64,000 nucleotides of DNA from Candidatus Berkelbacteria bacterium. GTDB taxonomy: Bacteria; Patescibacteriota; UBA1384; 2-12-FULL-50-11. The notes below the pieces were generated by a model that was given only the letters and a program-made list of their open reading frames with translations, was not told the DNA's origin and did not search any database. Made by a program: the position numbers and the translations under genes. Position 1 is the first letter of the stretch. Every line of letters starts with the position of its first letter. Positions 23,301 to 50,648 of this stretch are shown in pieces. The stretch spans positions 522,561 to 586,560 of the forward strand of contig CP066697.1 in assembly GCA_016432625.1 (NCBI GenBank), given 5' to 3'.

Positions 23301-26300
23301 CTGCCGGTGATACTTTCCGTCCTGCCTCCGGTGGCGGCGCTGATGTTACCACAATGCACGTCGAGAACGACGGTACCTGGACTGCCGATGGAAATGTCGT
23401 AACGGTGAACGGCAACTGGCAGAACGACTCTGTCTTTTCTTCCGGCACTAGTACGGTGACCTTCAACACCAGCGTAACCGGCAGAACTCTGAGTGGCACC
23501 CTAAGTGGTGTGAATGGCAAGTTTTATAATATCGACTTTACGACTGCCGAAGGGACTGCCACCGACGATTGGGAGATCCAAGCGGCGGTTGAAGCGGCAA
23601 ATGATTTCACGCTATCCGCCGGCAACATCGACACAAACAACAATGCCGTTACCGTAACGCGAGACCTCACTCTCACTAACGCGCTTAATACCGACTTCGC
23701 CGCCGGTTCTTCAACGATTACTGTTTCGCGTCACTTCAATGACACGGGCGACAAGTACACCCATAGTACTGATACGTTAGTGATGGCTGGGACTGGGACG
23801 TTCACGGTCGCCAACAACAGTCAGTTCTATAACGTCCACCTTGGACCGTCTGGCTTTACTACGACGCTGTCGCTCAACGATTGGGATGTAAATAATGTTC
23901 TAACGTTTAACGGCGGCACTGTCGCTGGTGGCGGTGGCAGTTGGATCGACCTTCATTGTTCGGGAACGTGCACACCGGTAGTTTTCGCGTCGGCCACTAC
24001 CCTGAATAGCAGCCGCGACCTTATCTTCCGAACCAACTCAGCTAGCAGCGTCCTCACTATTACGGGGGCAAACTACGGTAGTTGGGGAATTGTCAATTAT
24101 GCCGCGACTGGTAACGGCTCAACGTTTCAGCTAGGCGGCAACATCACCACAACGTCTTTTGGCCCGAGGCTAGAGGCAACCAACGGCATAACGGGCAGCA
24201 TTTTTACTACTACGGCTAGTAATTACTCGATCACCTCGTCATCAATGCGCATCGCGCCGTGTACTCCCGCAAGAACTGGCTCGTGGACAGCAAGCCTTAA
24301 TGATTCTGTCATAGCGCTATCGAGCACGAGCGATGCGCTCTATGTTGGAACGGACTGCGGTTCTCATACCCTCAATCTCAATACTTCGGACGTGACAGTT
24401 TCTGGTAACGTCAAATTCGTGAACGGTACCGGTACGATTACTGTTGATCCTGGCACATCCGATTTCCGCTTTACTCCACCGACCGCTGCGGTCAAAACCT
24501 ACTCACCGAACGGACAGGCGCTCTATAACGTCTATATCAACGGCGCCACAAGTACCGCTGATGTGCAACCCGATGCAGCGGCGCAAATTAATAACGACCT
24601 CACCATGACCAATGGCCGACTTGTAGGCACACAAAACATCACCGTCAACGGCCACGTCCAAGGAACCGCAGGTGAGATCAATTTAACCAGTGGAACTTTC
24701 ACCCAACGCGTTTCGGCTAATAAAAATTTTGGTACGACTAGCGGCTCAACAGCTTGGACGTTTTCTTCCTTGACGTTCTCTAACTCGCACGCCTCAGCTG
24801 GAATTACCGTCACAACCCAGACTGGTGGTACAGGAGGAATCACCGTTACCACCCTGCTTAAAATTGGGTCAAGTGGAGATGCGGCAGGCGCCACAACGAC
24901 TCTAGATGCCGGTAACCGTACTTGGACTCTTTCTGGCAATGCCACCACCGGCATTCCGTTCGAAATCCTCGCTTCTCCGGCTGGCGTGCTAACGGCTAAC
25001 GTGTCGACATTTACCTACACAGGTAACATAGGCCTGGGTAATATGACAGTCCAAGCCGCGACCTACTACAACTTAGACATAAACCGTAACGGCGAAATTT
25101 TTGTCCTCGAGGGGACGACGAACGCCGGCAACGACTTAACCATCACCAACGGTACGCTCGACACGACAGCGTCAAACCATGGTATGAGTATTACCCGCGA
25201 CGTCCTAATAGCTAATACGGCGGGTGCTACTTTCCGGGCTAGAGGTTCGACTATCACCGTCTCCCGCGACTGGTCAAAAGGACTGAACGGAACTTTCACT
25301 CGCGACAGTTCGACCGTTCAGCTTAACGGTGACGGTCAAATCCTGACTGTCGGCGGCGGCCAAACCCAATTCGAAAACTTAACAGTGGCGTATAACACCA
25401 AAACGACGACGATGGCGACTGCCAGAACCGACGTGTTTGGAGTTCTAACTATAGGCGATGCAAGCGGCGGCACGATGACTTGCTCGGTAACATGTGAATT
25501 CGAGCTCTTTAGGACTGCTGGGGCTGATCTAGTCATCGGCACCGGAGCAACACTTTCTGGTTCAAATGCGACTTTTCAGCTACGCAAACAGAGCGCCGCG
25601 ACAGTGACTGTGACCGGCGCGACAAACTACGGCACCTGGAATATTCTGATGCGCGCCAACGTCTCTGCTGGAGGGTTGGTAACGTATAACGTTGGTGGCA
25701 ACATTACGACCAATGGCTATATTCAAGTCAAGGCAGATACGCTTAGTACCGCAACGTTTAACACCCAAAACTTCACAATCAATGCCGACAAGTGGATTCA
25801 GGGTGACTCTACTGACAACAGCGCCACAACTTCTAACTGGGGCTCGAGCACAGCTACCTTCGATCTTGCCAGTGCCGCCGACACCTTTTACGTAAGTTCA
25901 AACGGAGGGGCACAGGTGGCCAACTTCCAAACTGCTTCCATTTCAGCAACCGGACACGTTAAGTTCGTCAACGGTACCGGCACCTTAGCCGTTGATGACG
26001 GTACTTCCACTTTTACATTTGCTCCGACGACTGGCACATCAACATACTCACCAAACGGCCAGACACTTTACAACGTTATCGTTAACGGTGCTGCAACCGT
26101 GCAGCCCGACGCCGCAGTCGTCGTCGCAAACGATTTAACAATGACGGCCGGGACACTTAACGGAACCCAAAATATCACCGTCAACGGCAATGTCGCTGGA
26201 ACGGCCGGAATCATCAGCTTAACGGGTGGGACGTTCGAGCAGCGTCTATTGGCTAATGTTGGGAAAAACTTTGGAACTACTTCGGGGTCAACTGCCTGGA

Positions 26301-29300
26301 CTTTCAATGACCTTACTTTCTCTAGCGCAGCAGTGTTCGACACTTGGCAAACAATTACCACCCAAACCGGCGGCAGTGGCGGGATCACTGTAAGCGCCGT
26401 TATGAGAGTCAACCGAGCCGCCGGTGCCAACGACAACGACGGTATTATCTTGACAGGCGGCAATCGAACTTGGACGCTCTCGGGAGCGAGCGGAATTCCT
26501 CTCCGAATGGAGACAACTGATTTCGGTGGCTTTATTGGTCAGATTAACCCGGGCACTTCGACTTTTACGTTCACCGGTGACTACCCACTTGGGAACACAA
26601 CGGTCGAGCAAAACCCTAACGGTAGCTCCACTGGGTACTACAACCTCGATATCAATAACTCCTCCGAAACGTACGTGCTTGAGGGCAATACAACTGTTGG
26701 CAACGACTTGACGGTGACCAACGGGGCGCTATCAACCACTGGCTCAAATCATTCTCTTACGGTCACTCGCGACTTAACACTTGCCAATACTGCTGGAGTT
26801 GGACTCACAGGTAACGGCTCGACAATTACCGTCTCGCGCAACTGGACGGATTTGGGCGGTAAATTCACTCCGGGTACATCAACAGTCACGCTAAATGGCA
26901 CAGGAGCAATCGACCTTTCTACGGGATTTGAGTTCTATAACTTGAATCTCGCTTACTCGACGTTCACGACTACTCTACCAGCTTCAAAGACAATTAATGT
27001 CGAGAGTGTCGTAACGCTAAATGGTGGCACCCTCTCCGGTAGCTCATCAGTACTAACCCCCAGACCACGAGTTTCTAGTAAGCCTCTTGTCGTTAACTCC
27101 ACAACAGCTTTCACTGGTAGTGGATTCAATATAATCTCGTGGACCGGATACAACGCCAGTCTGACACTGACGGTTGACGGCGATAACTACAGTCATAGTA
27201 GCTGGAACCTCTTTTTCGCTGGCACAACCAATGACACCACATTCCAACTTGACGCAGGATTAACCACTTCAACAGAGGTGCGTGTGTACGCTGGGGGCGT
27301 AATAACTGGCACTGCCTTCAACACCGCCAATAACGCAATGACGTTATCTGGCTTTCGGCTTGGATCAGGCGGCGCTACTCAAACGGTTTCGGCTAACTTT
27401 GGCTCTTCAACTATATCGTTTACGGGTACCGGTAACACTCTCTACCCGGAAAGTACGGGCGGGACATACAACCTCGATCTAGGCACTTCTTCAATCACAA
27501 CGACTGGTGACGTTCGATTTATTAATACCAGCGGCACGATCACAGTCACCGAAGGCACTTCAACCGTTACCTTCACGCCGGCCGCTTCGGCCACCAGAAC
27601 TTATGCCCCGAATGCCCAATCGCTGTACCACGTCATTATAAATGGCGGCAATGATGCCGCCGAAGTTGACCTAACTGGAAACGCTGACTTTAACGGCAAT
27701 CTGACTGTCAGCGGCGGCCGGTTAGATACGATCACAGGTTCCGAGTACTCAATTGACGCCTTTGACGTTACTCAGTCGGGTACTGCGGCGATTAAAGCCA
27801 ACGCCGCGACAATTACTGTGCGGGGCAACTGGGTTAGTAACGCCACATGGAACTCAAATATCGGTACTTCAACTGTGGTATTTACTGGGGTCTCTAAATC
27901 TATCGACACATCGGGTAGCGGTGGATCGACGCGTCACTTTTATAAACTGACAATCAACTCAGGCGCCTCGATCAATCTTGCTGGTACAGAACTTGTTAAT
28001 ACCGACAGCGATGTCAACGTCCAAGGAACATTCAATATCACTTCTGCCTGCGGTAACGGCGTCTTTTACTACGGTGGAACAGGAACGACCCTAACGGTTG
28101 GTGCCTCGGGAGTCCTTGGTGGCAGCGGCGGTTGCTTTACCCTTATGACTGCTACGCCAACCTACTCATTTGCCGGATCAATTACGACCTCAAATTTTCG
28201 ATTCCAGATTACAACTTCAACAACGATTCCCGCTTATACATACGGCGGCAACCTCTATTTTCGGCCAACCAGTGGTAGCCCAACCTACACGATAGGAGCC
28301 GGAACGATGACCTTAACGAGCTCCTGGACTAACGAGAATACTGGCGCTGGCACACTGACGGTCGACAATACTGTCAATAATACGAACTTCACTGCGGGTA
28401 ATGCGTTTAACGCCCTATCGAGTTCTGGTTCGTATTCCTTCCTGATGGGCTCCGCTACTTACGATATTAACGGCGCCTGGAACGATGCGGACTCGGCCAG
28501 CTTCACTAATGGCACGTCGACAGTTCTGCTAAGTGGCACGGGCACACAAACTGTCAGTCGGGCTAGTGGCGCTAACACATTCTATAACCTACAAATCACT
28601 AACAGCTCTGGCGCTTCAGCATCGGACTGTGAGCGAACCGGTTTCACTGCCTCTGTCGATTTTGCTAACGACGTGACAGTAACCAATAATTTGACCTTCA
28701 CAACTGCCAACACCAGGGTTGAGTTCGATGATGCCAATACCTACACATTTAACAACATTAACTGGAATGGGCAGGCCGGTGGCACTCGCGTCTACTTCCG
28801 CAACAGCGCCGTTAGTGGCTCGTGGAACTTAAACGTCTCGGGCACACAGACAGCCGTAAGCTACGTTAATGTTTCAAGGTCAAACGCTTCAAGCGGTAAC
28901 ACCATTGGTGCGTCTAACGGCACGAATATAGACTGTGGTAATAACGTTAACTGGAGTTTTGCAAACCCGAGCTCACCGACTAATCTGGCGCAAAAGAAAA
29001 CTGACGACACGGTCATCACTACCGGCGGTTGGACCAACGAGCTCTCGGTTAAATTTACCGCTGATATTTCTGACGGGGACAACCCGGCGACAATTCAGCT
29101 CTGTGTCGAGCGCGACATTTTAGGAGTCTTGTTCAGTAATACTGAAGATTCTTGTGGCGCAACGGTTGCCTATTCCGGAACGCCGGTAGCAGCAAGCGTT
29201 ACAATCAGTGTCACCGATACAAACGAATACCACTGGCAAGCCAGGGTTAAAGACTCTGGGGGCGCCTACTCAGGCTGGGTTAGTTACGGCGGTAACGGCG

Positions 29301-30157
29301 AAGGCGAGCGAGACTTTGGTGTCGACACGACTGCCTGTACGTACGGTGGACTAGTATACGATGGCACAGTCGAAGACGTAGATGCCGATTTCAATGACGG
29401 ATCAGTAAGCGCCCTGTCATCGAACTGGGATGCCTTTACTTGCACCGTCTCCGGGCTAAATAAATATCAGTACTCCATCGGCACAACCGTCGGCGGTACT
29501 GATATTAAGGGCTGGACAGACAATAGTACGACCGAATCTGTAACAGCAAGTTCTCTGAACCTGCATACCAATCAGCGCTACTACTTCAATGTCAGGGCGG
29601 TTGATAACGCCAACAATACTTCCAGCCCTACTTCCTCAAACGGCCAAGACGTTCTGCCAACCCTCACTTTCACACTTGGCTCGACCACTTTAACTTTTAA
29701 TAACCTGAACGACAGCAATAACCGTCAAGACGGCGAGACCTTAACTATTACCACCAGTACCAACGCCTACGGCGGTTATGTTGTGCGCCAGTATGCTACC
29801 GGGCTGCTGACTAACGGTACATTCACTATCCCGATGTTCCAGGGAGGCACTTACGCCTCGCCGGGCGCTTGGCCGGCCGGATTCTGTACCGGCGGCTCAA
29901 CTTGTGGCTACGGCTACACCTCTAATGACTCGACAATTCAGGGCGCCGATAAGTTTAATGGCGGCTTACTGTACGCCGCGCTCTCGATGACGGCATTCGG
30001 CGATATTATCGCTGACCATACTGACGCCGTAACGGGTGGCACTGGGGCAGTCGTAAATGAGCAGTACACTATTACTCATCGCGTTGCCGTTGACGCCCTG
30101 CAGGAGGCCAAAACTTATCAAACCGAAGTTCTCTATATCGTAACGGGAACATTCTAA
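20315..30157 (+). CDS. Giant cell-surface protein A1 (3280 aa). It has an N-terminal TM anchor, two ~390-aa jelly-roll/lectin-like N-terminal repeats, a long Thr/Gly/Asn-rich repeat region, Fn3-like modules and a conserved C-terminal ~170-aa domain ending ...YIVTGTF.
   Basis: The ATG at 20315 is preceded by AGAGGAGGG. A single uninterrupted ORF runs to 30157. Large internal repeats are present and paralogy to 37611..45656 runs over most of the length. Confidence 0.8.
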   Translation: MRRLDGVYSLGVVLSSKPVRRVGLLLTLLAVVIGITGSGFLPTLTQSQTGSASGARLWSSGAELNSLTADMEITSSSGTTPTIDSTTKRSGGYAYRANTSSNTATIYKTWANSAQQNKFWFRAYIRIATAPGTEIGIFRAGTSTNNKIGVRMNSDRSIELWNEEDNAIIGSASSVLATNTWYRIELYIDTTTLSSAVADMELRLDGVQVASSTDRTLDAGVDRLTWGVLTSTTADLYFDDIAVNDSTGRTDNWPGEGKIVHMQPDATGDNEQWDNTTEAGSPTECDAAGDPNWQCVDEIPPDNSTTYSATTTNNEIDDYNIESSTSAGLTANDYVRLVSVGVRFRACGTTTEGFGCAAGESNQDLVVRLKAAASGTTDEATTTVLDSDTTWRTNDDDSAQLNKITDYDLPGTSTSPWTTTDLDSSQIGVKTNTNNGVGIRASAIWLQVEYVPNFGGRLFSSGFELNSTVADEEWTATTSSPAINSSTFRSGAYALETENAGGAEWIRYNFATSNTTGDYFVRAYLRIATGFDSSDVTVLSILNTTNSRKAYIKLTASETLTLHDEDGAIGSASSTLSTGVWYRVELKLVCGTACDDGNDEVDGRLDGVSFASSTTRDITAGGAARLGLGLHASDDAESTTNTVGDLIWDDVALNKNQGSYQNTWPGAGKIIHLRPNATGDNSETWASAGSETTTCDDAADANWQCLDEITPDEATSYVEETTTGDYEDFNLDASPIGASDTVNVVHVGARFRTSSATQEDFKVRIKDNTSAVPIESDTLSPASTTWVSNRTAAPYQYPLTAYTRPEQETAWTDTQLDTAQIGVRDIAGSGTVQVSTLWLLVDYTPPEITISGSCDQYDQTTDCTDDGSNEIAVAVNGTIQTGKVDATVDGAWAISGVTQPVINDIVTVFINGEATDDEEAVAVTKYDGTGDITGIQLFWRHLSIGSVDNQTLSNTDLSQYDNSVSADEDIFFDVSAGDDLTVDSLGSYTDEELYIAAGDTFRPASGGGADVTTMHVENDGTWTADGNVVTVNGNWQNDSVFSSGTSTVTFNTSVTGRTLSGTLSGVNGKFYNIDFTTAEGTATDDWEIQAAVEAANDFTLSAGNIDTNNNAVTVTRDLTLTNALNTDFAAGSSTITVSRHFNDTGDKYTHSTDTLVMAGTGTFTVANNSQFYNVHLGPSGFTTTLSLNDWDVNNVLTFNGGTVAGGGGSWIDLHCSGTCTPVVFASATTLNSSRDLIFRTNSASSVLTITGANYGSWGIVNYAATGNGSTFQLGGNITTTSFGPRLEATNGITGSIFTTTASNYSITSSSMRIAPCTPARTGSWTASLNDSVIALSSTSDALYVGTDCGSHTLNLNTSDVTVSGNVKFVNGTGTITVDPGTSDFRFTPPTAAVKTYSPNGQALYNVYINGATSTADVQPDAAAQINNDLTMTNGRLVGTQNITVNGHVQGTAGEINLTSGTFTQRVSANKNFGTTSGSTAWTFSSLTFSNSHASAGITVTTQTGGTGGITVTTLLKIGSSGDAAGATTTLDAGNRTWTLSGNATTGIPFEILASPAGVLTANVSTFTYTGNIGLGNMTVQAATYYNLDINRNGEIFVLEGTTNAGNDLTITNGTLDTTASNHGMSITRDVLIANTAGATFRARGSTITVSRDWSKGLNGTFTRDSSTVQLNGDGQILTVGGGQTQFENLTVAYNTKTTTMATARTDVFGVLTIGDASGGTMTCSVTCEFELFRTAGADLVIGTGATLSGSNATFQLRKQSAATVTVTGATNYGTWNILMRANVSAGGLVTYNVGGNITTNGYIQVKADTLSTATFNTQNFTINADKWIQGDSTDNSATTSNWGSSTATFDLASAADTFYVSSNGGAQVANFQTASISATGHVKFVNGTGTLAVDDGTSTFTFAPTTGTSTYSPNGQTLYNVIVNGAATVQPDAAVVVANDLTMTAGTLNGTQNITVNGNVAGTAGIISLTGGTFEQRLLANVGKNFGTTSGSTAWTFNDLTFSSAAVFDTWQTITTQTGGSGGITVSAVMRVNRAAGANDNDGIILTGGNRTWTLSGASGIPLRMETTDFGGFIGQINPGTSTFTFTGDYPLGNTTVEQNPNGSSTGYYNLDINNSSETYVLEGNTTVGNDLTVTNGALSTTGSNHSLTVTRDLTLANTAGVGLTGNGSTITVSRNWTDLGGKFTPGTSTVTLNGTGAIDLSTGFEFYNLNLAYSTFTTTLPASKTINVESVVTLNGGTLSGSSSVLTPRPRVSSKPLVVNSTTAFTGSGFNIISWTGYNASLTLTVDGDNYSHSSWNLFFAGTTNDTTFQLDAGLTTSTEVRVYAGGVITGTAFNTANNAMTLSGFRLGSGGATQTVSANFGSSTISFTGTGNTLYPESTGGTYNLDLGTSSITTTGDVRFINTSGTITVTEGTSTVTFTPAASATRTYAPNAQSLYHVIINGGNDAAEVDLTGNADFNGNLTVSGGRLDTITGSEYSIDAFDVTQSGTAAIKANAATITVRGNWVSNATWNSNIGTSTVVFTGVSKSIDTSGSGGSTRHFYKLTINSGASINLAGTELVNTDSDVNVQGTFNITSACGNGVFYYGGTGTTLTVGASGVLGGSGGCFTLMTATPTYSFAGSITTSNFRFQITTSTTIPAYTYGGNLYFRPTSGSPTYTIGAGTMTLTSSWTNENTGAGTLTVDNTVNNTNFTAGNAFNALSSSGSYSFLMGSATYDINGAWNDADSASFTNGTSTVLLSGTGTQTVSRASGANTFYNLQITNSSGASASDCERTGFTASVDFANDVTVTNNLTFTTANTRVEFDDANTYTFNNINWNGQAGGTRVYFRNSAVSGSWNLNVSGTQTAVSYVNVSRSNASSGNTIGASNGTNIDCGNNVNWSFANPSSPTNLAQKKTDDTVITTGGWTNELSVKFTADISDGDNPATIQLCVERDILGVLFSNTEDSCGATVAYSGTPVAASVTISVTDTNEYHWQARVKDSGGAYSGWVSYGGNGEGERDFGVDTTACTYGGLVYDGTVEDVDADFNDGSVSALSSNWDAFTCTVSGLNKYQYSIGTTVGGTDIKGWTDNSTTESVTASSLNLHTNQRYYFNVRAVDNANNTSSPTSSNGQDVLPTLTFTLGSTTLTFNNLNDSNNRQDGETLTITTSTNAYGGYVVRQYATGLLTNGTFTIPMFQGGTYASPGAWPAGFCTGGSTCGYGYTSNDSTIQGADKFNGGLLYAALSMTAFGDIIADHTDAVTGGTGAVVNEQYTITHRVAVDALQEAKTYQTEVLYIVTGTF
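20480..22850 (+). repeat. Tandem intragenic duplication encoding two ~390-aa N-terminal modules of A1
   Basis: ARLWSSGAELNSLTADMEITSS...WPGEGKIVHMQPDATGDNEQW...NWQCVDEIPPDNSTTY pairs with GRLFSSGFELNSTVADEEWTATTSS...WPGAGKIIHLRPNATGDNSETW...NWQCLDEITPDEATSY. Confidence 0.7.
24380..27700 (+). repeat. Diverged tandem intragenic repeats with an approximately 1.55-kb period (about 520 aa) inside A1
   Basis: Three copies start with G(N/H/D)V(K/R)F(V/I)N(G/T)(T/S)GT(I/L)(T/A)V(D/T)...TYSPNGQ(A/T)LYNV near 24400, 25950 and 27500, with about 70 percent nucleotide identity. Confidence 0.6.
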
Positions 30158-30158
30158 G

Positions 30159-31271
30159 ATGCCGCGGCCGTGGCAACGCAGGCATAAAGCCCTTTTGTTC
30201 GTGCTTAGCTTACTCATTTCGGTCTTCCCTGTTGCAAGAACGAGAGCCGCATTGGTCACTTCGTTTTCTGACACACTGGCGACGATCAAAGAGTCAGTAC
30301 CCACAAATCACACCCTTCGCTTTACAATTAATGATTCATGGGATGAGAACGATACAATCACGATCGATTTCCCCAATACCTTTAATACGTCTGGTTTTGC
30401 TGATAGCGAGCCTGAGGACTACGACGTCACTGACGACGGCGTCGATCAAAACCTGGTAGCAACTGGCGGTTGTACCGGCGCTGCGAACGAGGTCCAGATT
30501 GCCGCCGTCAACACAACGACCGACACTTTTACCTTCACCCGATGCGCCGGTGATGGAGCGATCGCGAACGGCTCTATTATCACTATAGAAATCGGCACGA
30601 ATGCAACTTTCGGTGCTGCGGGTAATGATCAGATTACTAATCAAACTGCGGCTGAAAACGATACCGACCCGACCGTGACTCTTGGCGGAACATTTGGCGG
30701 CAGTGGCACCTTGGCGCTTGAGATTGTCATTGACAACGACTCGCTAGTTAGTGTTACGGTGCTCCCTCGAATTAGCTGCGTATTCGGCGGCATGACTGTT
30801 ACATTTCCTGACGCAACCGGCACTGTAATTACCGCGGCTACTAATACCACAATTACCGCCGGCACTAACGCTCAAAATGGTTTTTCAGTCACCGTTTACG
30901 ACCAGGGCAACGGCACTAACCCCGGGTTATATAAAGGTAGTGCGCCCACCTATCTTATCGGTTCGGCAAATAGTGCTTTTGGAGATACGGCGACTTTGGC
31001 AACGAACGTTGACGGTTTCGGTATTCAGGGCACAGCCACACAAGGAGACATTGGTTCGGCAACGCTGACGATCGCTGCACGCTACAACCAGGCAGGAAAT
31101 AATGTCGGTGGGCTGGAAATTAACCCGGCAGGTGCCCAGACTCTCGCTAGTACCACTGGGCCCGCCAACAACACAATTACTACTGTCACTCATAAAATGG
31201 CCGCTTCAATGTTAGCACCGAGTGGCACTTACACCGACACGCTCACATATGTTTGTACGGGGATTTTTTGA
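30159..31271 (+). CDS. Secreted surface protein B1 (370 aa), a paralog family sharing the C-terminal domain of the giant proteins (ends YTDTLTYVCTGIF)
   Basis: Starts 2 nt after the A1 stop. Signal peptide, then the conserved mature N-terminus AALVTSFSDTLATIKESVPTNHTLRFTIND. Confidence 0.7.
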   Translation: MPRPWQRRHKALLFVLSLLISVFPVARTRAALVTSFSDTLATIKESVPTNHTLRFTINDSWDENDTITIDFPNTFNTSGFADSEPEDYDVTDDGVDQNLVATGGCTGAANEVQIAAVNTTTDTFTFTRCAGDGAIANGSIITIEIGTNATFGAAGNDQITNQTAAENDTDPTVTLGGTFGGSGTLALEIVIDNDSLVSVTVLPRISCVFGGMTVTFPDATGTVITAATNTTITAGTNAQNGFSVTVYDQGNGTNPGLYKGSAPTYLIGSANSAFGDTATLATNVDGFGIQGTATQGDIGSATLTIAARYNQAGNNVGGLEINPAGAQTLASTTGPANNTITTVTHKMAASMLAPSGTYTDTLTYVCTGIF

Positions 31272-31311
31272 AACTTTACAGGATGCAAAACCGGTCATAT
31301 ACTGGCAACAG

Positions 31312-32415
31312 ATGAGGGGGAAGTTGTTTAAGCAGTTTATTATCGGCTGTGCCATAGTACTTCTAGGCGGCTTGTTCCCCGTCCTACCCGCTCATGCCGC
31401 AGCAGTCACTTCATTCTCCGATACGCTTTCAACCATAAAAGAAAGTGTCGTCGCCAACCACACCTTCACCTTTACAATCGTGGACGATTGGCAGGCTGGT
31501 GAAACGCTGTCTCTTGCTTTCCCAGCTGGTTTTTCTGCCGCTGGATTCGCTAACACTGAGCCAGAAGACTTTGACGTGACTGATGACGGAGCCGATCAAA
31601 CCCTGGTCGCTAGCGGTGGCTGTAGCGGCGCAGCGATTGAAGTTGAGATTACGACAACTGACATTGTCGATCCTATAGGATTTACCTTCACCCGTTGTGC
31701 GGGTGATGCGACAATTGCTGCTGGTTCAATAGTTACTATCGAAATCGGTACTCATGCTACTAGCGGTGCTGCTGGGAACGACCAAATAACGAACCAAACC
31801 GCGGCTCAAAACGGCACTAACGCTATAATTACTTTGGCTGGTGGCGGAGGGTACACCGACACTGGATCGCTGGCAGTGGAGATAGTCGCTGACAACGACG
31901 TGACTGTTAACGCAACTGTCGACCCGAGAATAACTTGCGCATTCGCCGGCCTGACAACGACGTTCGCTTCACTAGCCGGTCCTATTACGACTTCAGACAC
32001 CACAACAACGGTGACAATTAGTACTAACGCGCCGAATGGGTTTACGTTGAGCGTTAGAGATGAAGGCAACGGTACAAACCCGGGTCTTTACAAAAGCGTG
32101 GCGCCAACCTACTTAATCGGTTCTGCCGACAGTGCTTTCGCCGATACGGCGCTACTAGCTAACGATGTTGACGGCTTCGGGGTTCAAGGCTCTGTCGCGG
32201 GCGGTTCCGGAGCAGCCGTAACAGTTGCCGCTCGCTACGACCAATCAGGCAATAACGTCGGCGGCTTAGAACGCGTTGCGACAACTCTTGCCTCAGCCAC
32301 TGGAGCAGTAGCAAGTCGGGTAGTTAGCGTTGTCCATAAAGCCGCGGTATCGGGTTTAGCTAACGCCGGCGCCTACACTGATACTTTAACTTACGTTTGT
32401 ACGGGAATATTCTGA
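31312..32415 (+). CDS. Secreted surface protein B2 (paralog of B1)
   Basis: The start is placed at MRGKLFKQF..., by analogy to the MRGK start of B3. The ORF-track start at 31222 overlaps B1 by 50 nt. Mature N-terminus AAAVTSFSDTLSTIKESVVANHTFTFTI. C-terminus YTDTLTYVCTGIF. Confidence 0.65.
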   Translation: MRGKLFKQFIIGCAIVLLGGLFPVLPAHAAAVTSFSDTLSTIKESVVANHTFTFTIVDDWQAGETLSLAFPAGFSAAGFANTEPEDFDVTDDGADQTLVASGGCSGAAIEVEITTTDIVDPIGFTFTRCAGDATIAAGSIVTIEIGTHATSGAAGNDQITNQTAAQNGTNAIITLAGGGGYTDTGSLAVEIVADNDVTVNATVDPRITCAFAGLTTTFASLAGPITTSDTTTTVTISTNAPNGFTLSVRDEGNGTNPGLYKSVAPTYLIGSADSAFADTALLANDVDGFGVQGSVAGGSGAAVTVAARYDQSGNNVGGLERVATTLASATGAVASRVVSVVHKAAVSGLANAGAYTDTLTYVCTGIF

Positions 32416-32453
32416 TGCTTGACATGGTTCGGCCTAAAGTAGAGATTGGAAGT

Positions 32454-33581
32454 ATGAGGGGGAAAACTAAGACCTACCGCTTCGGTATGGGTTTGATTGT
32501 CGCCGTTCTGGTAGTCGGTATCTCGGGGCTGGGGTTGTCGCCGGCTTTGGCAGCTAACGTCGCCAGTTTTTCCGACGTCTTGTCGACGATCAAAGAAAGC
32601 GTGGTCGCCAACCACACTTTGACGTTCACAATTCAGGACGCCTGGAACGCTTCCGAAACACTAACGCTTGATTTTCCGGCGGGTTTCTCCAATGCAGGTT
32701 TCGCCAATACTGAAGCTGAGGACTACGACATCACCGACGACGGCGCCGAGAAAGCGATAGTTGCCAGCGGAAGCTGCGCGGCTAACAGTATCGAAATAAC
32801 GACTGTCGACACAGTCGACCCTGTCGGTTTCACCTTTACTTACTGCGCCGGCTCTACCGCCATCGCCGCCAGCTCAATTATTGTCATCGAGATTGGCACT
32901 AACGCCACAAACGGTGCGGCGGGCAACGACCAAATAACGAACCAAACTGCTGCCCAAAACAACACTAACGGTAAAATCACCCTGACCGGCGGCGGTGGTT
33001 TCACCGACACCGGTTCGTTAGCCCTCGAAATTGTTGCCGACAACGACGTGACTGTTAACGCTACCGTTGACCCTTCAATAACCTGCGCATTTACCGGGCT
33101 TACAACTACTTTCAGTTCGTTAACTACTGGTGCCGTTTCGACTTCTGACACTCAAACGACAGTTACTGTCAGCAGCAATGCTGGAAATGGTGTCAATATA
33201 ATCGTCTATGACGCCGGCAACGCCACCAACCCTGGTCTCTATAAAAGTGCGGCGACAACGTATCTGATCGGCTCGGCGGACGGTGCGTTTGGCAACATCG
33301 CTACACTGGCTGCAGGAACTGACGGTTTCGGTATTTCTGGTGCTAGCTCTGCGGGGTCGGGTGCAGCCCTGACTGTTGATGGTCGCTTCGATGCCTCAGG
33401 CGGCGCTAACGAAATGGGTGGTTTGGAAGTTGGCGCCGGTGCGGCAGTTTCAATCGCTGCTTCCACTGGTGCTTTAGCGAGTCGAGTCCTGACCGTTACT
33501 CATAAAGCCGCCGTTTCTGGTTTAGCGCCCGCCGGTTCTTACACTGACACGATTACCTACGTCTGCACTGGGATCTACTAA
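32454..33581 (+). CDS. Secreted surface protein B3 (paralog of B1/B2)
   Basis: ATG at 32454 (MRGKTKTYRFG...) with GGAAG upstream. Mature N-terminus ANVASFSDVLSTIKESVVANHTLTFTI. C-terminus YTDTITYVCTGIY. Confidence 0.65.
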   Translation: MRGKTKTYRFGMGLIVAVLVVGISGLGLSPALAANVASFSDVLSTIKESVVANHTLTFTIQDAWNASETLTLDFPAGFSNAGFANTEAEDYDITDDGAEKAIVASGSCAANSIEITTVDTVDPVGFTFTYCAGSTAIAASSIIVIEIGTNATNGAAGNDQITNQTAAQNNTNGKITLTGGGGFTDTGSLALEIVADNDVTVNATVDPSITCAFTGLTTTFSSLTTGAVSTSDTQTTVTVSSNAGNGVNIIVYDAGNATNPGLYKSAATTYLIGSADGAFGNIATLAAGTDGFGISGASSAGSGAALTVDGRFDASGGANEMGGLEVGAGAAVSIAASTGALASRVLTVTHKAAVSGLAPAGSYTDTITYVCTGIY

Positions 33582-34602: not shown

Positions 34603-35583
34603 ATGGTATTAACACTGAGGGTCCTGCTTACTTATTCCTTGGCGCTTATTTTTGTGCCGACCGCCCTAGCCCAAACAAATTCAGTCGTTAACGCCAACGT
34701 CGTCTCGTCGGTCTCGGCGACAAACTCATCTTTCGTGGCGGATTTGGCCGAATTACCGGCCGACGGTACGTCAATGGTAACGCTAACCGCAACAATTGTT
34801 GACGCCAACAACCTGCCACTGCCGCAAAAGGAAGTTATCGTGACTTCAAACCGCGGCGATATCGACACGATCCGTTGTTACGCCGGCTCAACGCTGACAG
34901 AGGAGAATAAGGCTACCACTGACACAAACGGCGTTGCCCGTTGTGGCGCGCGTTCCTTAGTCCCAGGAGAAGCGACCTTCACCGCAACGGCAGATACTGT
35001 CATCCTCGAGGATAAGCCTGTTGTTAAATTCACTCCGTTGCCAATCCTTACCCAGCTAAAAATAACCGTGAAAACGCCCGGGGGCGGCCAAGTCACTTTA
35101 GTCCAGCCGCCCGCACCATCTGCAACGCCTAGCAGCCCGACCGGTGAAGGGCTTGATCACTCACCGTCAAGCGACAAACTTGTCGATACTGGGATTAACC
35201 TGCAGATCCCGTTCTGGGTTTTTATAATCACCGCCTTATTTTTCCTATTGATACCGGTCTTACTCCTAATAATCATCGTGCTAATCCGTAAGATTCGCCT
35301 GATGATCGGCGCCGCGCGTAAACACGCTGAAGCCGAGGAGGCGTTACTCGCTAAAATCTACACTCTCGAGCAACAGGTCGCCCAAGAACAGCATGCCGTC
35401 ACGGCTCAAGCTCAGCAGGTAACGGTCGCTAATGAAAAGTTGACCGATAAAATAGATCAAGTAAGCGACCAGCTTAGTTCGAATATTAACGGAATGTCGC
35501 AAACAACAAGCGAGGCAGTGACGCCAACAATTTTGGAGACACCAAGCGCTCCGGAAGTGCCGCCAAGTGAGCCTCAGGCTTAG
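34603..35583 (+). CDS. Membrane-anchored protein with a bacterial Ig-like (invasin/intimin-type) domain and a C-terminal coiled coil
   Basis: Signal peptide, then TSMVTLTATIVDANNLPLPQKEVIVTSNRGDI (a Big-like fold), a Pro/Ser linker, a TM helix LLIPVLLLIIIVLI, and a Gln/Ala-rich coiled coil. Confidence 0.5.
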   Translation: MVLTLRVLLTYSLALIFVPTALAQTNSVVNANVVSSVSATNSSFVADLAELPADGTSMVTLTATIVDANNLPLPQKEVIVTSNRGDIDTIRCYAGSTLTEENKATTDTNGVARCGARSLVPGEATFTATADTVILEDKPVVKFTPLPILTQLKITVKTPGGGQVTLVQPPAPSATPSSPTGEGLDHSPSSDKLVDTGINLQIPFWVFIITALFFLLIPVLLLIIIVLIRKIRLMIGAARKHAEAEEALLAKIYTLEQQVAQEQHAVTAQAQQVTVANEKLTDKIDQVSDQLSSNINGMSQTTSEAVTPTILETPSAPEVPPSEPQA

Positions 35584-37610: not shown

Positions 37611-40600
37611 ATGGAGGGGAAACTAAGGGGGCGCATAGACGGCGTGTATCGTTCGGGCGTAACCTTGCTCGCTAATACCTGGAAAAACCATCCGTACCGT
37701 TTCCCCGTGCTGTTGATAGTTTTCCTCTTATCACTCACTGTCTCTAACTCACTGGTCTTTTTCCCGAAAAACGAAGACGGCACGCGAGCCGAAACCGCCA
37801 AAGCCTCCACTTACCAATTCGTTCCGACAGGCGGTAACTTAGTGACCGGTACAGATTTGAACGCCAACTCCTTGCTTGCTGCGGCAGCCGAGGGTGTCAA
37901 CACCGGCTCATGGAAAGGCACATTGGCCGACGACAACTTTCACTGGGTAGTTGACATGCTGGCTTCCGGCACGCCCAACGTCAATATGCAACTTGATCTA
38001 GGGACAGCTAAACTGACAAATGCCAATAAGTTACTGATCCAAACCGAGATTGACATGGATAACGCCAGCCACTTGCTCACGGTGCAGATCTGTGACTGGG
38101 TCTCTTCTACCTCTGTTGACGCGGCAGCTGATAGTCAGTGCACAACTGGTGGATGGCGCTCCCTAAACAGCCAGAATGCTTCAAACGCTGATGTAACAAT
38201 TGGACTGACAACAAGTACCGGTTTTCAGTGGCATATTTTTGACGGCTACTTTACAACAGGTACGACCGGTGGTTCGGCGATCTCAACGCCGCTAACGAAT
38301 TTCACTAGCAGCGACACACAACCCATCCGTATCCGCTACTGGTCAGATTCTGACGTCACTTGTAGCTCCGACTGCAATTTGGGAATAGATTTTCTGCGCG
38401 CCACGGCTTTCGTTGATTCGATTTATCATCCAGCAGGTGTGGTAAATCAAAATGGCAGCGGTGGGGCATTAGCCGGAACGTATGCAAACGCTCACGTCGT
38501 TGGTAACTCGTCCACGGCTCAACAATCTGTCACCGCCGGTAACGCCGTTTATCTGACTGGAGCAGGAACGGCAGGGTCAGTGGCAGACTATTATCTTGTC
38601 TTCAAGAATGTCAAAACATATACCGGCGCAAATACTTTCTACTTCAAGGCTGACTACTCTTGCTCGGCTGCGACAGCTGGATTGGATCATAAATTTTCTA
38701 TTTATAACTTTGCTACTACCACCTGGGTTGATTTAAACTCGGCGGTGATTGCGTGTTCGGTGACAGATGCCACCAATGCGTGGGCTGAGAATAATATTAC
38801 GCCGTCTGATTTTATCGACGAATCGGCAAGTGACGAGGTTCGAGTTCGCTTTCTAGGAGACTTAAACAGCACTACGACCTTGAGGATCGATTTCGCCTAC
38901 TTAGTTCTTGGATCGACTAACGCTGATTCCGCCCAATGTGAGGTTACATGGGGCACTGGAACAGCAACTAACTGTGCTAACACGCGGGATCTAGTTGGCC
39001 CGGCAACAGCAACTGTTTTTTCTGACCCGGCCGAAACCCGTTCTAACACTGCTGACAACGACTATTACGCCCTTGACTGCGATTTCAATACAACCGCCAA
39101 TGAGTGCTCCGCCGCTAATATTGATTTCCCGGTAACCGTTCCCGTCGATGCCCAAGTGGTCGTCAATCACTTCGCGGGCCGATTCGCTGGAGACTTGGTT
39201 GGCACAACCAACCCAGATTTGACGGCTCAGATGGGGATCCGAGATTACTCGGGAACCCCCACGAGTACGTCTGGCCCTGGTGGTTGGACACTAGTTGGAG
39301 CCAGTTCTGCAACTTTGACACAAATATATACCGATTCAATCACGGCACTGTTGATCGGTACGTATGGAATGCAAATCAACCCAGACGATCACGTTGACAC
39401 TAATAACAATGAAATGAATCTACGCTTGCGTACCACGCTCTCTGGTTTGGACTCCCAGGATTCTCGCTGGGAGTGGGACTTCGCCATGGTAAGTATTGGC
39501 TGGGTGGTTGACTCGTCACATCCAACCCGCGATTACCAATTCGCTCCGACTGGCGATACTTTGGCAGCGGGGACAGAAACCGCTCGCCTTGCTCTAACAG
39601 CCGCCGCCAACACTGGTGTTAACACCGGTGGTTGGCAAGGAACTCTTGGCGATGACAACCTCCACTGGACGGTCAATGGAGCTAACGTTGTCGGCACAAA
39701 CTTTGATGTTCAACTAAACTTTACAACCGCCAAACAAAATGGCGCCAATATGATGTTAATCCAGACTGAGTTTGATACCGACCTAAATATCGGCGCGAAA
39801 ATCCAAATTTGCGATTGGGTCTCAAGTACGAGCGTCGACGCGGCAGCGGACGGAAACTGTACGACGGGCGGTTGGCGTTCAATCAACAGTCAGGACGCTT
39901 CCAATAACGACGTTACCTATACTGGTACCACTGCTGTGGTACTGCAATGGCATATTTTTGACGGCTATTTCACAACTGGTACCACTGGTGGTTCAGCAAT
40001 CTCAACGCCGCTCGGTAACTTCTTCCATTCCAGTAACGGCGTCAAGATCCGTTACTTCTCGACAACACAAACCGCCACTGCCATTGACATTGATTTCCTC
40101 CGTATTCAACCCATCATCGACACCATCTATCACCCGGCATCCGTGACAAATCTTAACGGAAGCGGCGGCGCTTTGGCTGGTACATACGCTAACGCTCACG
40201 TCGTTGGTAACACTGTCAGCGCCCAGCAATCGGTTACCGCTGGTAACGCCGTTTATTTAACTGGAGCAGGTACGGCAGGATCAATCGCCGATTATTACCT
40301 TTCGTTCAAAAATATCAAAACCTACGCGGGCATGAATACTTTCTACTTCAAGGCTGACTACTCCTGCTCTGCGGCAACCGCTAACTTAGATACCGAGTTC
40401 GCGATTTATAACTTCACTAGCGCTGCTTGGGAGGATTTAACGACTGCGGCCATCGCCTGCTCAACCACTGATGCCACGCATGCTTGGGCTAAAAACAATG
40501 TCACGATGGCAGATTATATTAACGGTGGTGAGACGCGGATAAGGTATTACGGTGACTTAAACAGTGCTACCACTTTGCGCTTAGACTTTGCCTATCTTGT

Positions 40601-45656: not shown

Positions 45657-46618
45657 TGAAAAAACTTATCCTCACAACATTATTACTTTTGCTTCTCCCC
45701 GTCGTACCAACTGCTTTGGCTCAAGGCGGGGCAATCTCGCCGACTATCGGTGTTACCCCAGCGAAATTGTTTGAGACCGTTACCCCAGAGAAAAAGCAAC
45801 AATTTACCATTAAATTACGTAATTTAGGCATCGACCCTCTGCCGCTGACTGCTTCAACGACCGACGTTGACGGTATTACTGACGAAGGGATTCCGGTGTT
45901 TAGCGAGGCCGTAGCACCGAGATCGGCTAGCTCGTGGATCGCTTTAAGTAGTACGGACGTCATTGTTTCACCTGGGGAGACCAAAGAGCTCGCCCTTAGC
46001 GTTACGCCACCAAAAGATGCCGCACCAGGCGGTTACACGGCAGCGATTATCTTCCAAGCTCAGCTGCCCTCGTACTATTTCGACCTCGATGCGTCAGCTC
46101 GTATCCTACCGGCAATCTCGGTCTTGGCCTTCTTCACGATCCCCGGTAGCGGCGAAATACAGGTGGACAAAGTGTCGTTAGAGAGCCTGAAGGTTCCACG
46201 AATTGTAGTCAGCACGCCGCTATCGGTAGTGGCGGACGTTAAAAATGATAGTAATTTCTTCGTACAGGCCGACGCCCAGGCCACTATTACTAACGTCATC
46301 AGCAAGAAGGCCAAAACCTCAAAGATCGGTTCGATAATCCTGCTCCCTGAAAAAAGTCGAAAATTCATTACAGCATTCGAAGAAGCCATCTGGCCCGGTG
46401 TTTACACCGCAACAATTAACTTTACCCAAGGAGATAAGGTTTTAGTTGGCAGCGCTAAATTCGTCGCCTTGCCTTGGGCGTTCATCATCTTACTGGCCTT
46501 ACTCGCCTTCTTGGCTCTTGGATTTGCCGGACGAAGACGGGTGAGACACGCCTGGTTAGTCTTGCGCGGTAAGGAACATGAGCTCGCCGCTACTAAAAAG
46601 CGTCCGACTCTACGTTAA
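45656..46618 (+). CDS. Surface beta-sandwich protein C2 (paralog of C1) with a C-terminal TM anchor and basic tail
   Basis: The ATG overlaps the A2 stop (TGATG). MKKLILTT... signal peptide, then ...PGGYTAAIIFQAQ..., then an LPW motif, a TM helix and RRRVRH. Confidence 0.6.
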   Translation: MKKLILTTLLLLLLPVVPTALAQGGAISPTIGVTPAKLFETVTPEKKQQFTIKLRNLGIDPLPLTASTTDVDGITDEGIPVFSEAVAPRSASSWIALSSTDVIVSPGETKELALSVTPPKDAAPGGYTAAIIFQAQLPSYYFDLDASARILPAISVLAFFTIPGSGEIQVDKVSLESLKVPRIVVSTPLSVVADVKNDSNFFVQADAQATITNVISKKAKTSKIGSIILLPEKSRKFITAFEEAIWPGVYTATINFTQGDKVLVGSAKFVALPWAFIILLALLAFLALGFAGRRRVRHAWLVLRGKEHELAATKKRPTLR

Positions 46619-46678
46619 GACTTGACAAAGAAGCGTCGAGGTCTGATATTGGAGTTAATGAGTAGAGGGAGGGCAGTC

Positions 46679-50092: not shown

Positions 50093-50158
50093 TGAATATT
50101 AGACACTGGCCGGTAGAAGCTCGAAGCGTTAGCAAGATGTTTTACTGGACGGGCGGAT
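50068..50158 (+). repeat. Direct repeat. The last 7 codons of the dockerin gene (MFYWTGG-stop) are duplicated 68 nt downstream, just upstream of the next gene.
   Basis: GATGTTTTACTGGACAGGTGGCT at 50068-50090 versus GATGTTTTACTGGACGGGCGGAT at 50136-50158. Confidence 0.6.
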
Positions 50159-50648
50159 GATGAGACGTGTTGTAATACTTATCGCCCTTATTGCTGCCGT
50201 GCTCGTTCTGTATTGGCTTCTGAGGTTACCAGGAAGCGCAAAAATCGATCTTCAAGCACCCAAAACCATCTCAGCCGGTCAGAATTTTGAAGTCCCTCTG
50301 CGGCTCAGCGTTCCGACTGCTATTAATGCCGCCGAGTTTTACTTCAGCTTCCCTAACGACAAGCTCGAGGTGATCGAAATCAAAAAGGAGGGTAGCTTCT
50401 TCGCTCTCTGGATCACTGGTTTCCCCAAATTCACTAACGAGTCAGGTAGCCTAGAGTTGGCGGGTGGCCTGCCCAAACCTGGTTTCAGTGGCAAAAATGG
50501 CTTGGTTGCAACCGTCGTCTTTAAGGCAAAAGCCAGCGGCGAAGCAATTATTAGTTTGGACTCGAAAAAAAGCCGATTACTCGCTAACGACGGTCTTGGC
50601 AGCCAAGTTGTCTCTACCTTTCAACCTGTCACAATAAATATTAAGTAA
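50157..50648 (+). CDS. Small membrane-anchored cohesin-domain-like protein
   Basis: N-terminal TM, then ISAGQNFEVPLRLSVPTAINAAEFYFSFPNDKLEVIEI..., a cohesin-like beta-sandwich pattern. Confidence 0.5.
   Translation: MMRRVVILIALIAAVLVLYWLLRLPGSAKIDLQAPKTISAGQNFEVPLRLSVPTAINAAEFYFSFPNDKLEVIEIKKEGSFFALWITGFPKFTNESGSLELAGGLPKPGFSGKNGLVATVVFKAKASGEAIISLDSKKSRLLANDGLGSQVVSTFQPVTINIK

Follow-up and report, generated by a model that had tools for sequence, protein, structure and literature searches.

The 64,000-nucleotide stretch of Candidatus Berkelbacteria DNA analysed here (the window) carries, between positions 20315 and 52323, two gene modules that we read, with a probability of about 0.72, as encoding a Pam-type, usher-less donor-strand pilus, a divergent Berkelbacteria variant in which the linker between the two domains of each pilin serves as the donor strand. 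The components are four pilin-like proteins (B1 to B4), three membrane-anchored chaperone-like proteins (C1 to C3), two giant proteins (A1 and A2), a membrane protein with an immunoglobulin (Ig) domain (D), and a protein ending in dockerin-like repeats (the dockerin protein), which adjoins two cohesin-like membrane proteins (Table 1). This reading is built on the homologies, domain architectures, folds, conservation patterns and synteny observed for these genes; no usher-like gene was found between 20315 and 52323.

Pam pili are known from Candidatus Mycosynbacter amalyticus, of which two pilins, PamA and PamB, have been solved by electron cryomicroscopy (cryo-EM); in each, a nine-strand beta-sandwich N-terminal domain (NTD) is followed by a single linker strand and then by a truncated Ig-like C-terminal domain (CTD), which in the fibre is filled by the linker of the adjacent pilin through donor-strand exchange (Troman et al., 2026, bioRxiv 10.64898/2026.03.03.709456). 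The same work describes PamC and PamD as PapD/FimC-like chaperones with a C-terminal transmembrane (TM) helix, PamT as a tip protein consisting of the CTD only, PamR as a terminator and anchor with an additional strand at the N-terminus and a TM helix, and a post-translational modification of PamA at Ser356, and it places Pam pilins predominantly in Saccharimonadia and Microgenomatia (Troman et al., 2026). In the window, B1 to B4 and A1 align with the NCBIfam model NF058581 (CPR_Pam_pilin_C; CPR, Candidate Phyla Radiation) over the full length of the model and up to their own C-termini, at 17-25 bits (17.3-24.6). Within the 78-member B family, 54 proteins match this model (best E 3.4e-42) and three match the PamT model NF058579 (E 2e-32). 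One homologue (P0099) passes the NF058581 cutoff, with 72.2 bits against 55, and has the same N-terminal motif, ALLNVSDTLSTVNTNASANHTIVF, together with the same locus layout. Wherever a B or C homologue has a named source, it is a CPR bacterium (Berkelbacteria, Saccharibacteria, Nomurabacteria, Falkowbacteria and 'Patescibacteria group'), and B2 is a 100% match to a hypothetical protein (P0001) of a Candidatus Berkelbacteria metagenome-assembled genome (769-kb contig). A search of Pfam with B1 to B4 returned only a sub-threshold Big_8 match.

The architecture of a Pam-type pilin, a beta-sandwich NTD followed by a linker strand and a CTD, is also found in the AlphaFold2 (AF2) model of mature B2, which was computed as a monomer from the 78-sequence alignment, with strands assigned by DSSP (predicted local distance difference test, pLDDT, 96.5; predicted template modelling score, pTM, 0.72). 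The NTD, of about ten strands, ends at about residue 159; residues 164-177 (ADNDVTVNATVDPR) are without a strand partner despite their alternating pattern; and residues 178-338 form a beta-rich CTD. The pTM fits a pair of rigid domains with a free linker between them. Conservation in the B family, measured as weighted column information, peaks at residues 111-120, 168-180 (the linker), 207-214 and 323-338, the last being the C-terminal strand with which the CTD ends as G-x-Y-x-x-x-x-x-Y-x-x-x-x-x-F-COOH, while residues 1-30 lie barely above the mean (2.7 vs 2.42 bits). The linker core reads VTVNATVDP, with the pattern ..V-T-V-x-A-T-V-D-P.., and both this linker peak and the conservation pattern of the family agree with the linker-donor system of the Pam paper. 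The inter-subunit donor strand is probably this conserved linker between the two pilin domains.

A different donor had been proposed in a sequence-only reading of the window, namely a segment of some 27 residues that follows the leader peptide in B1 to B4 and the dockerin protein and that would complete the fold of the next B protein or of a C protein, as in chaperone-usher pilins and TasA-type fibres. The strings on which this proposal was founded are all present in the listed open reading frames (ORFs) and their translations, and the B1-B3 consensus VTSFSD holds as quoted overall, except that B3 reads VASFSD. The hydrophobic leaders end in AXA-like sites (B1 ARTRA↓A, B2 AHA↓A, B3 ALA↓A, B4 VSA↓V, dockerin protein ALA↓V; read by eye by the -3/-1 rule), and in all five proteins the segment begins 0-6 residues past the predicted cleavage site. 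In the B2 model it does form beta-strands. These are, however, two DSSP strands, residues 6-10 (FSDTL) and 21-26 (HTFTFT), with additional bridges at residues 2, 14 and 18-19, so that the segment is hydrogen-bonded within the monomer, paired in cis at a pLDDT of 95-98. The self-complete fold that would speak against a donated segment is thus seen in so far as the segment provides the first two, paired strands of the B2 domain.

The requested comparison of the five N-termini by alignment confirms that the similarity is real, and extends it: B1 to B4 and the dockerin protein are alignable over about 155-175 residues, past the first 27 or so and on through the NTD and the linker. The 78-sequence B-family profile aligns with residues 4-153 of the mature dockerin protein (hhalign, 97.4%, E 1.1e-11), the alignment ending exactly at ...AIIEGVTVSLTI, which faces ...EIVADNDVTVNATV of B2. 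In BLASTP comparisons, B4 and the dockerin protein share 31% identity across 161 amino acids (aa; E 5e-18), and B2 matches B4 with an E of 3e-11. Since the whole NTD and linker are common to the five proteins, the claim of a shared segment was true but understated. Within B1-B3 the 27-residue segment is indeed more conserved than the remaining domain (74-85% vs 59-73% identity), but between B1-B3 and B4 or the dockerin protein it falls to 15-33%, against 28-33% in the remaining domain and 29-57% in the inter-domain linker; between divergent paralogues it is therefore the linker, and not the segment, that is better conserved than the rest. The segments resemble one another far more than chance would allow, but do so only within a longer homology, and the segment (S-D-T-L-S...N-H-T-x-x-F) is most likely the leading edge of the shared domain and linker, a hallmark of the NTD and no terminal extension.

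The wider family bears on the same point. A profile of the NTD and linker made from the five window sequences and searched against 1.84 billion cluster representatives gave 842 matches at E <= 1e-3 and 423 at E <= 1e-10. Among the best 145 matches, 82 are NTD-CTD pilins, 57 have an NTD and no recognisable CTD (a group that includes fragments) and two are NTD-NTD-CTD proteins; the group without a CTD contains two proteins with an NTD and a dockerin (P0203 and P0289) and about 25 long proteins (680-1211 aa) that share a conserved tail resembling CarboxypepD_reg. In these long proteins (the P0216-P0320 class) the NTD directly follows the leader and the tail reads ..FEPKYNKLxExxxTDxxGRYxF..PIDY..; they could be another donor-only class. 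A further protein (P0178, 3077 aa) has nine tandem NTD copies and a C-terminal TM helix, and in it the motif is internal, as STLSDTLSTSETSQPANHTLAF at residue 967 and as ...NHTITF at about residue 195. It follows that the motif depends on neither a free N-terminus nor the proximity of a signal-peptidase site. The same protein indicates a use of the NTD as a beads-on-a-string stalk besides its use in pilins.

Cis pairing and internal copies thus leave the N-terminal segment, already disfavoured as a donor, a very improbable one; it belongs to a 160-aa domain that is homologous along its full length, and the solved PamA and PamB donate the linker, which in B2 is unpaired and a peak of conservation. 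The proposal that the B proteins polymerise or dock through a donated strand stands in kind, given their place in the Pam family, with the donor element probably misassigned.

In a second explanation the motif would be no structural element but a signal for processing, sorting or modification, such as a tag read by a dedicated peptidase or an N-H-T glycosylation sequon. This explanation draws on the position of the motif beside the cleavage site, on the N-x-T sequon formed by N20-H21-T22 of mature B2 (window 31456-31464) and on the fact that PamA is modified, though at Ser356. In the consensus of the segment among 118 family representatives, N20 (77%) and T22 (73%) are nevertheless less conserved than H21 (95%) and D8 (90%); the other frequent residues are S11 (72%), I23 (71%) and F25 (83%). 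The internal tandem copies retain the motif, and the model places the segment, with high confidence, within buried regular secondary structure. The locus and its surroundings contain no gene for a signal peptidase, a sortase or a glycosyltransferase, and because the window encodes neither of the first two, a dedicated enzyme of either kind was dropped as the reason for the motif. A signal of this kind is accordingly given hardly any credence. The near-invariance of Asp8 (window 31420-31422) and His21 among the 118 representatives is a separate observation, and could reflect a metal site, a glycan site or a structural hydrogen-bond network.

Evidence for the linker as donor comes also from the anchor proteins. 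The order trigger factor, giant protein, pilin or pilins, C and then an anchor protein is conserved across related loci, and D has syntenic orthologues in L001 and L005-L008. Proteins at the D position are of the Big_1 or CarboxypepD_reg type, with a C-terminal TM helix; D itself matches PF02369 (Big_1) at 42.8 bits, above the gathering threshold (GA). In several loci the N-terminus of the anchor reads as a copy of the pilin linker: QNTVAVTASV against DNTVAVTATV in L001 (8/10 identical), TVNATVVSSV against TVNATVDPSI in L006 (7/10), 6/10 in L007 and, in the dockerin protein of L003, which starts TSYTVDIYATVAG, TVDIYATVAG against SVDIAATVAQ (7/10). When each anchor was compared with the pilin of its own locus and with 1000 composition-preserving shuffles, L001, L006, L007 and L003 were each significant (0-6/1000 shuffles attain the score), and the score summed over ten loci was 240, against a null of 162.6 +/- 11.7 (0/1000 shuffles). 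The mature N-termini of C1-C3, of the second cohesin-like protein (Coh2) and of B2, used as controls, showed no resemblance to the linker in this test, the N-terminal segment included. That anchor N-termini copy the linker of their cognate pilin supports the view that the acceptor domain recognises the linker motif. N-terminal donor-like strands would on this evidence occur in other proteins, in the D orthologues and the L003 dockerin protein, which lends the proposal of an N-terminal donor a certain plausibility; what these strands mimic, however, is the linker and not the segment. D, which differs from its L006 orthologue at two core positions only, is proposed to terminate module 1 and to anchor it in the membrane, in the manner of PamR.

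Distribution of donor and acceptor parts over the remaining proteins completes the picture. A1 lacks both the NTD and a VTVxATV linker, and only its last part, of about 169 aa, is pilin-like: the B family aligns with this tail (hhalign, 96.7%, E 3.9e-10) from a point exactly after the linker, and the match of A1 to NF058581 (22.4 bits, model positions 3-148) ends at the C-terminus. A2 likewise aligns with the B family in the CTD only (hhalign, 72.7%, E 3.2e-5). Because A1 and A2 bear only the acceptor CTD, they are probably the tip adhesins of modules 1 and 2, respectively; the A1 orthologue in L001 has Laminin_G_3 domains, and A2 has a smaller orthologue in L003 (1266 aa) with the same N-terminal repeat and C-terminal domain. 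The dockerin protein is the converse, the hhalign alignment ending at the linker, and the missing acceptor CTD makes it a donor-only subunit, proposed as the base or terminator of module 2. The sequences therefore suggest three classes, acceptor-only (A1 and A2), donor plus acceptor (B1-B4) and donor-only (the dockerin protein), a set that would correspond, by analogy, to the tip, shaft and terminator logic of donor-strand systems, and the acceptor-only tip and donor-only terminator of Pam are both found here, in A1/A2 and in the dockerin protein, window D being weak if taken alone.

Module 2 runs in the order A2, C2, B4, C3, dockerin protein and two cohesin-like membrane proteins. In the dockerin protein, two repeats resembling D-x-N-x-[DN]-x-x-[VI]-x-x-x-D were recognised by eye (49928-50071), and Big_13 matches at 20.9 bits; the first cohesin-like protein matches PF00963 (Cohesin) at 32.1 bits, above the GA of 24.1. 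The membrane-anchored cohesin-like proteins are proposed, from their sequences, as candidate receptors for the dockerin. Dockerin or cohesin genes also flank pilins in L003 (12120-14002), L011 (8580-9686 and 12400-15609) and L012, which suggests that a dockerin-cohesin pair tethers the base of the fibre.

The C proteins had been taken, in the sequence-only reading, as membrane-anchored partners of the B proteins, and this is well supported: in C1-C3, encoded in the operons, a leader is followed in each case by two beta-sandwich domains and a C-terminal TM helix; with the fold matches of C1 to WxLIP and to chaperone-usher chaperones, they answer to the membrane-anchored PapD/FimC-like chaperones of Pam. 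C3 passes the threshold of PF06030 (WxLIP_PGBD; 40.3 bits vs GA 27.3), C1 and C2 remain below it, and 44 of the 56 C-family members match; two are named DUF916 proteins by NCBI. The AF2 model of the C1 ectodomain (pLDDT 90.8) shows the two beta-sandwich domains and, after a low-confidence loop (mature residues 113-130), a hydrophobic strand, IGVIGLVGTLLL. A Foldseek search of the Protein Data Bank (PDB) with this model returns Enterococcus faecium WxLIP first, free (9i1y) and bound to a long WxL protein (9i25), with E 2e-11 and 1.3e-10, followed by the chaperones CfaA, CsuC, Caf1M, FimC and EcpB (E 4e-10 to 5e-7), and the C-family profile finds EfmWxLIP1 among PDB sequences (E 2.8e-4). DUF3324 was not detected by Pfam in C1-C3. 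A loop strand of WxLIP has been predicted by AF2 to complete the WxL sandwich (Hassan et al., 2023, PMC10599100); if the prediction is right, this would be strand complementation of the chaperone type. The Pam-type chaperones thus fall within the WxLIP/DUF916 family of Firmicute WxL clusters, and the two systems may share ancestry.

These matches raise the alternative that the locus encodes no fibre at all, only a CPR counterpart of the WxL/Csc complex, in which C proteins would permanently hold single A and B proteins by strand complementation. Besides the PF06030 matches and the WxLIP structures at the head of the Foldseek list, the combination of a small protein and a large protein with a common C-terminal domain and a TM-anchored WxLIP parallels the WxL clusters, and no filament has been observed for this organism. 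On the other hand, the B proteins have a donor-like linker as well as an acceptor domain, donor-only and acceptor-only partners adjoin them, the tandem arrangement of three pilin paralogues is easier to reconcile with a polymer than with a 1:1 complex, family members match the Pam pilin and PamT models (E 3e-42 and 2e-32), and Pam pilins do form filaments. None of the 78 B-family members has a WxL domain (PF13731) at E <= 0.1, their C-termini read Y-x-x-x-x-x-Y-x-x-x-x-x-F with no W-x-L, and a CTD profile searched against PDB sequences recovered no WxL chain at E <= 10; on these sequence grounds the pilins were not classed as WxL proteins. We consider a complex without a fibre unlikely.

Taken as a Pam-type pilus, the locus would work as follows, by homology to the cryo-EM structures of PamA and PamB; polymerisation, donor-strand identity, subunit order and dockerin-cohesin tethering are inferred. 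Once the subunits have been exported by Sec and their leaders cleaved, the membrane-anchored C1-C3, of WxLIP/PapD-like type, would cap the incomplete CTD of each subunit, until the linker strand of the next subunit displaces the chaperone strand and extends the chain as CTD(n)-linker(n+1). A1 and A2, with an acceptor CTD only, would start the fibre as tip adhesins, and growth would stop with the donor-only proteins: in module 1 with D, through its N-terminal linker-like strand, Big_1 domain and TM helix, and in module 2 with the dockerin protein, whose NTD, linker and Ig domains lead to a dockerin that the adjoining membrane-anchored cohesin proteins would hold.

Several points weigh against this reading. 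The window B proteins lie below the NF058581 cutoff (17-25 vs 55 bits), their link to Pam runs through the NCBIfam models and the matches of other family members, and no filament has been seen in this organism. A Foldseek search of the PDB with the B2 model, in a set without PamA and PamB, gave only generic two-Ig-domain matches with low template modelling scores (integrin, MSCRAMMs, CfaE, PapG and BslA), which are not diagnostic, and profiles of the B family and the CTD found only chance matches among PDB sequences (e.g. myocilin and an antibody chain), with no PamA/B or WxL chains. In AF2 monomers a strand that is really swapped between subunits can appear self-complemented, a trans strand sometimes being folded back in cis, and the description of the segment as paired in cis comes from DSSP of such a monomer alone; a secondary trans contact of the segment within the fibre may exist in addition. 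The somewhat higher conservation of the segment relative to the remaining NTD in B1-B3, with D8 and H21 near-invariant, may likewise indicate a segment with a specific role, e.g. as a contact between subunits, as a site for a metal or glycan or as the nucleus of folding. In the linker-copy test the window D is not significant alone (VNANVVSSVS against VNATVDPSIT, 5/10, z = 0.9), nor are L005, L008 and L011-L013 individually. Finally, the Dockerin_1 match of the dockerin protein (19.3 bits) is below its GA of 22.9, and the PF00963 match of the second cohesin-like protein (19.3 bits) is below the GA of 24.1.

Other features of the locus may be noted. A cysteine pair in the NTD (C75 and C100 of mature B2) is invariant in the alignments of B1-B4 and the dockerin protein; a second pair, found only in B1-B3, joins the first and last strands of the CTD (C180 and C334). 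These pairs parallel the paired cysteines reported for PamA and PamB. B3 and C1 (33579-33587), and C2 and B4 (46616-46624), share a reading frame and are separated by a stop codon and one codon; A1 and B1 lie 1 nucleotide apart, and B1/B2, B2/B3, A2/C2 and C3/dockerin protein overlap as listed ORFs. Such abutting and overlapping genes indicate tight operon packing, and translational coupling is possible. Between the modules lie E1 and E2, which match PF13354 at 114.8 and 91.3 bits; an E1/E2-like gene also follows D in L008, and a role in cell-wall remodelling, e.g. for passage of the fibre, is possibly theirs. Upstream of the locus are an 840-aa right-handed beta-helix protein (14375-16897, minus strand) and a protein with CarboxypepD_reg and NAGPA (phosphodiester glycosidase) domains (10359-11756, plus strand); both add to the secreted or surface-type genes in the vicinity of the pilus cluster.

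Table 1. Positions in the window of the genes and protein segments of the two proposed pilus modules.
Feature	Position	Strand	Remarks
A1, giant secreted protein, module 1	20315..30157	+	3280 aa
A1 acceptor CTD	29648-30154		last ~169 aa, only pilin-like part
B1 pilin	30159..31271	+	ORF translation; NF058581 18.7 bits; hidden Markov model domain matches
B1 leader	30159-30248		
B1 N-terminal segment	30249-30329	+	ALVTSFSDTLATIKESVPTNHTLRFTI
B1 linker	30720-30770		EIVIDNDSLVSVTVLPR
B1 CTD	30768-31268		
B2 pilin	31312..32415	+	NCBI HZB70_04065, 367 aa; true start ATG 31312
B2 leader	31312-31398		
B2 N-terminal segment	31399-31479	+	AAVTSFSDTLSTIKESVVANHTFTFTI; strands 6-10 and 21-26
B2 N-terminal peptide sequence			AAVTSFSDTLSTIKESV
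B2 NTD	up to about 31878		
B2 linker	31879-31929		EIVADNDVTVNATVDPR
B2 linker peptide sequence			DNDVTVNATVDPS
B2 CTD	31930-32412		
B3 pilin	32454..33581	+	HZB70_04060; ATG 32454; NF058581 21.3 bits
B3 N-terminal segment	32553-32633	+	ANVASFSDVLSTIKESVVANHTLTFTI; mature protein starts 32553
B3 linker	33027-33077		
B3 CTD	33075-33578		
C1	33585..34574	+	leader, two beta-sandwich domains, C-terminal TM helix, basic tail; WxLIP/DUF916 type
D	34603..35583	+	leader, Big_1 Ig domain, TM helix, cytoplasmic coiled tail
D mature N-terminus	34672-34719	+	QTNSVVNANVVSSVSA
E1 and E2, tandem TM-anchored Beta-lactamase2-family proteins	35606-36577, 36592-37539	+	between the pilus modules
A2, giant protein, module 2	37611..45656	+	2681 aa; acceptor CTD 45171-45653
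C2, second membrane-anchored WxLIP-like chaperone	45656..46618	+	weak PF06030 match, fn3_5; aligned within C family
B4, divergent pilin	46679..47809	+	NF058581 24.6 bits, model positions 2-148
B4 N-terminal segment	46763-46843	+	VAPEDLTVLLSDSRPSTVANWTITHDQ; mature protein starts 46763 as VAPEDLTVLLSDSRPSTVANWTITHD
B4 linker	47207-47248		AVVSGVTVSATVDE
B4 CTD	47249-47806		
C3, third WxLIP-like chaperone	47847..48860	+	PF06030 WxLIP_PGBD, above GA
Dockerin protein	48863..50092	+	leader, NTD and linker 48938-49402, Ig-like domains, dockerin-like repeats 49928-50071
Dockerin protein N-terminal segment	48938-49018	+	VRPDSVKDTLSDSRKATNSRHTITVDM; mature protein starts 48938 as VRPDSVKDTLSDSRKATNSRHTITVD
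Dockerin protein linker	49361-49402		AIIEGVTVSLTIPL
First cohesin-like protein	50157-50648	+	N-terminal anchor
Second cohesin-like protein (Coh2)	50650-52323	+	557 aa; C-terminal TM helix

CPR bacteria are mostly uncultured epibionts, for which attachment to the host is a central open question. The locus would put a Pam-type fibre in a Berkelbacteria genome, with pilins that the curated NCBIfam cutoffs would miss, and it suggests a parts list of giant adhesins that only accept, shaft pilins that both donate and accept, and anchors that only donate, in which subunit order is directly testable. For sequence scans, the present case illustrates that a conserved stretch after the signal peptide is alone no evidence of a donor strand, the informative element here being the internal linker. 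Two leads reach past what has been published on Pam, namely the link to WxLIP and the pairing of dockerin with cohesin; the preprint makes no mention of WxL, dockerin or cohesin (bioRxiv 10.64898/2026.03.03.709456). WxLIP/DUF916 membership of Pam-type chaperones would link a Gram-positive surface-protein cluster that is widespread yet poorly understood to donor-strand pili, and the dockerin-cohesin pair that recurs beside pilin genes may tether the fibre base.

Among known systems, TasA fibres, archaeal threads or bundling pili and cannulae, an analogy already drawn, for TasA-type fibres, in the sequence-only reading, resemble the proposed fibre in building on beta-strand complementation with minimal machinery and without an outer membrane. 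These fibres, however, donate their mature N-terminal strand, whereas the segment here appears integral to its own domain, and the TasA and archaeal thread types are single-domain and chaperone-less where the window has two-domain subunits and chaperone-like genes; neither the B-family profile nor Foldseek, both run against the PDB, found a sequence or fold match to TasA or archaeal pilins. With chaperone-usher pili, above all those of the archaic and alternative classes (Csu, CFA/I, Caf1, Ecp), the locus would share an incomplete Ig-like subunit that is capped by the strand of a two-domain chaperone and completed by a strand of the next subunit, tip adhesins that bear a pilin domain at the C-terminus (FimH, PapG, CfaE), a donor/acceptor logic of termination and, in C1, a fold matching the chaperones CfaA, CsuC, Caf1M, FimC and EcpB. 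It differs in lacking an outer membrane and an usher, in the membrane anchoring of the chaperones, in its two-domain subunits and in a donor that is probably an internal linker rather than an N-terminal extension.

The WxL/Csc clusters of Firmicutes (PMC10599100; 9i1y, 9i25) hold the closest relatives of the C proteins by sequence and fold, their WxLIP (DUF916-DUF3324-TM) having a counterpart in the window C proteins. These clusters, too, combine small proteins and a large protein with host-binding N-terminal domains, one common C-terminal domain and a TM-anchored two-Ig partner whose loop strand is predicted by AF2 to complete the sandwich. Unlike them, the B and A proteins have neither a WxL domain (PF13731) nor W-x-L motifs, the window pilins have an additional NTD and donor linker and so can chain, and WxL proteins are described as peptidoglycan-bound surface complexes and not as a fibre. 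A literature search for WxL together with a donor strand gave nothing beyond a 2013 review. It is tempting, though at rather worse than even odds, to regard CPR Pam pili and the Firmicute WxL/Csc clusters as two branches of one ancient, usher-less and WxLIP-chaperoned donor-strand system belonging to monoderm-type envelopes, of which Berkelbacteria would make fibres with tip adhesins of ~3000 aa and donor-only anchors of the TM or dockerin-cohesin kind; if so, the WxLIP 'peptidoglycan-binding domain' would really be a PapD-like chaperone domain, and cohesin-dockerin would serve as a pilus anchor, a use that we have not seen described. As in cellulosome anchoring, a secreted protein with a dockerin-like C-terminus adjoins genes for membrane-anchored cohesin proteins; the window differs in having no carbohydrate-active enzyme context and in a putative tether of a pilus base, where the cellulosomal dockerin tethers an enzyme.

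The nearest system overall is Pam, with its pilins PamA, PamB and PamE, chaperones PamC and PamD, tip PamT and anchor PamR (NF058581, NF058579). The window departs from it in lineage (Berkelbacteria), in pilins under the NCBIfam cutoff, in its neighbours (trigger factor/ClpP and phosphoglycerate kinase/triosephosphate isomerase, where Pam has ATP synthase), in acceptor-only proteins that are giants of 2681-3280 aa where PamT is a single domain, and in its terminators, one a Big_1/TM protein where PamR is RbmA-like, the other an NTD and linker protein that ends in a dockerin and adjoins cohesin membrane proteins. A1/A2 on the one hand, and the dockerin protein and D on the other, are thus functional analogues, and no orthologues, of PamT and PamR. 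Both systems belong to CPR hosts and have Sec-exported, two-domain pilins with paired cysteines, in which a linker joins the beta-sandwich NTD to a C-terminal pilin domain; they also share several pilin paralogues per operon, TM-anchored two-Ig chaperones working without an usher, an acceptor-only tip class, a donor-only, membrane-tethered terminator class, and conservation that peaks at the linker and the C-terminal strand.

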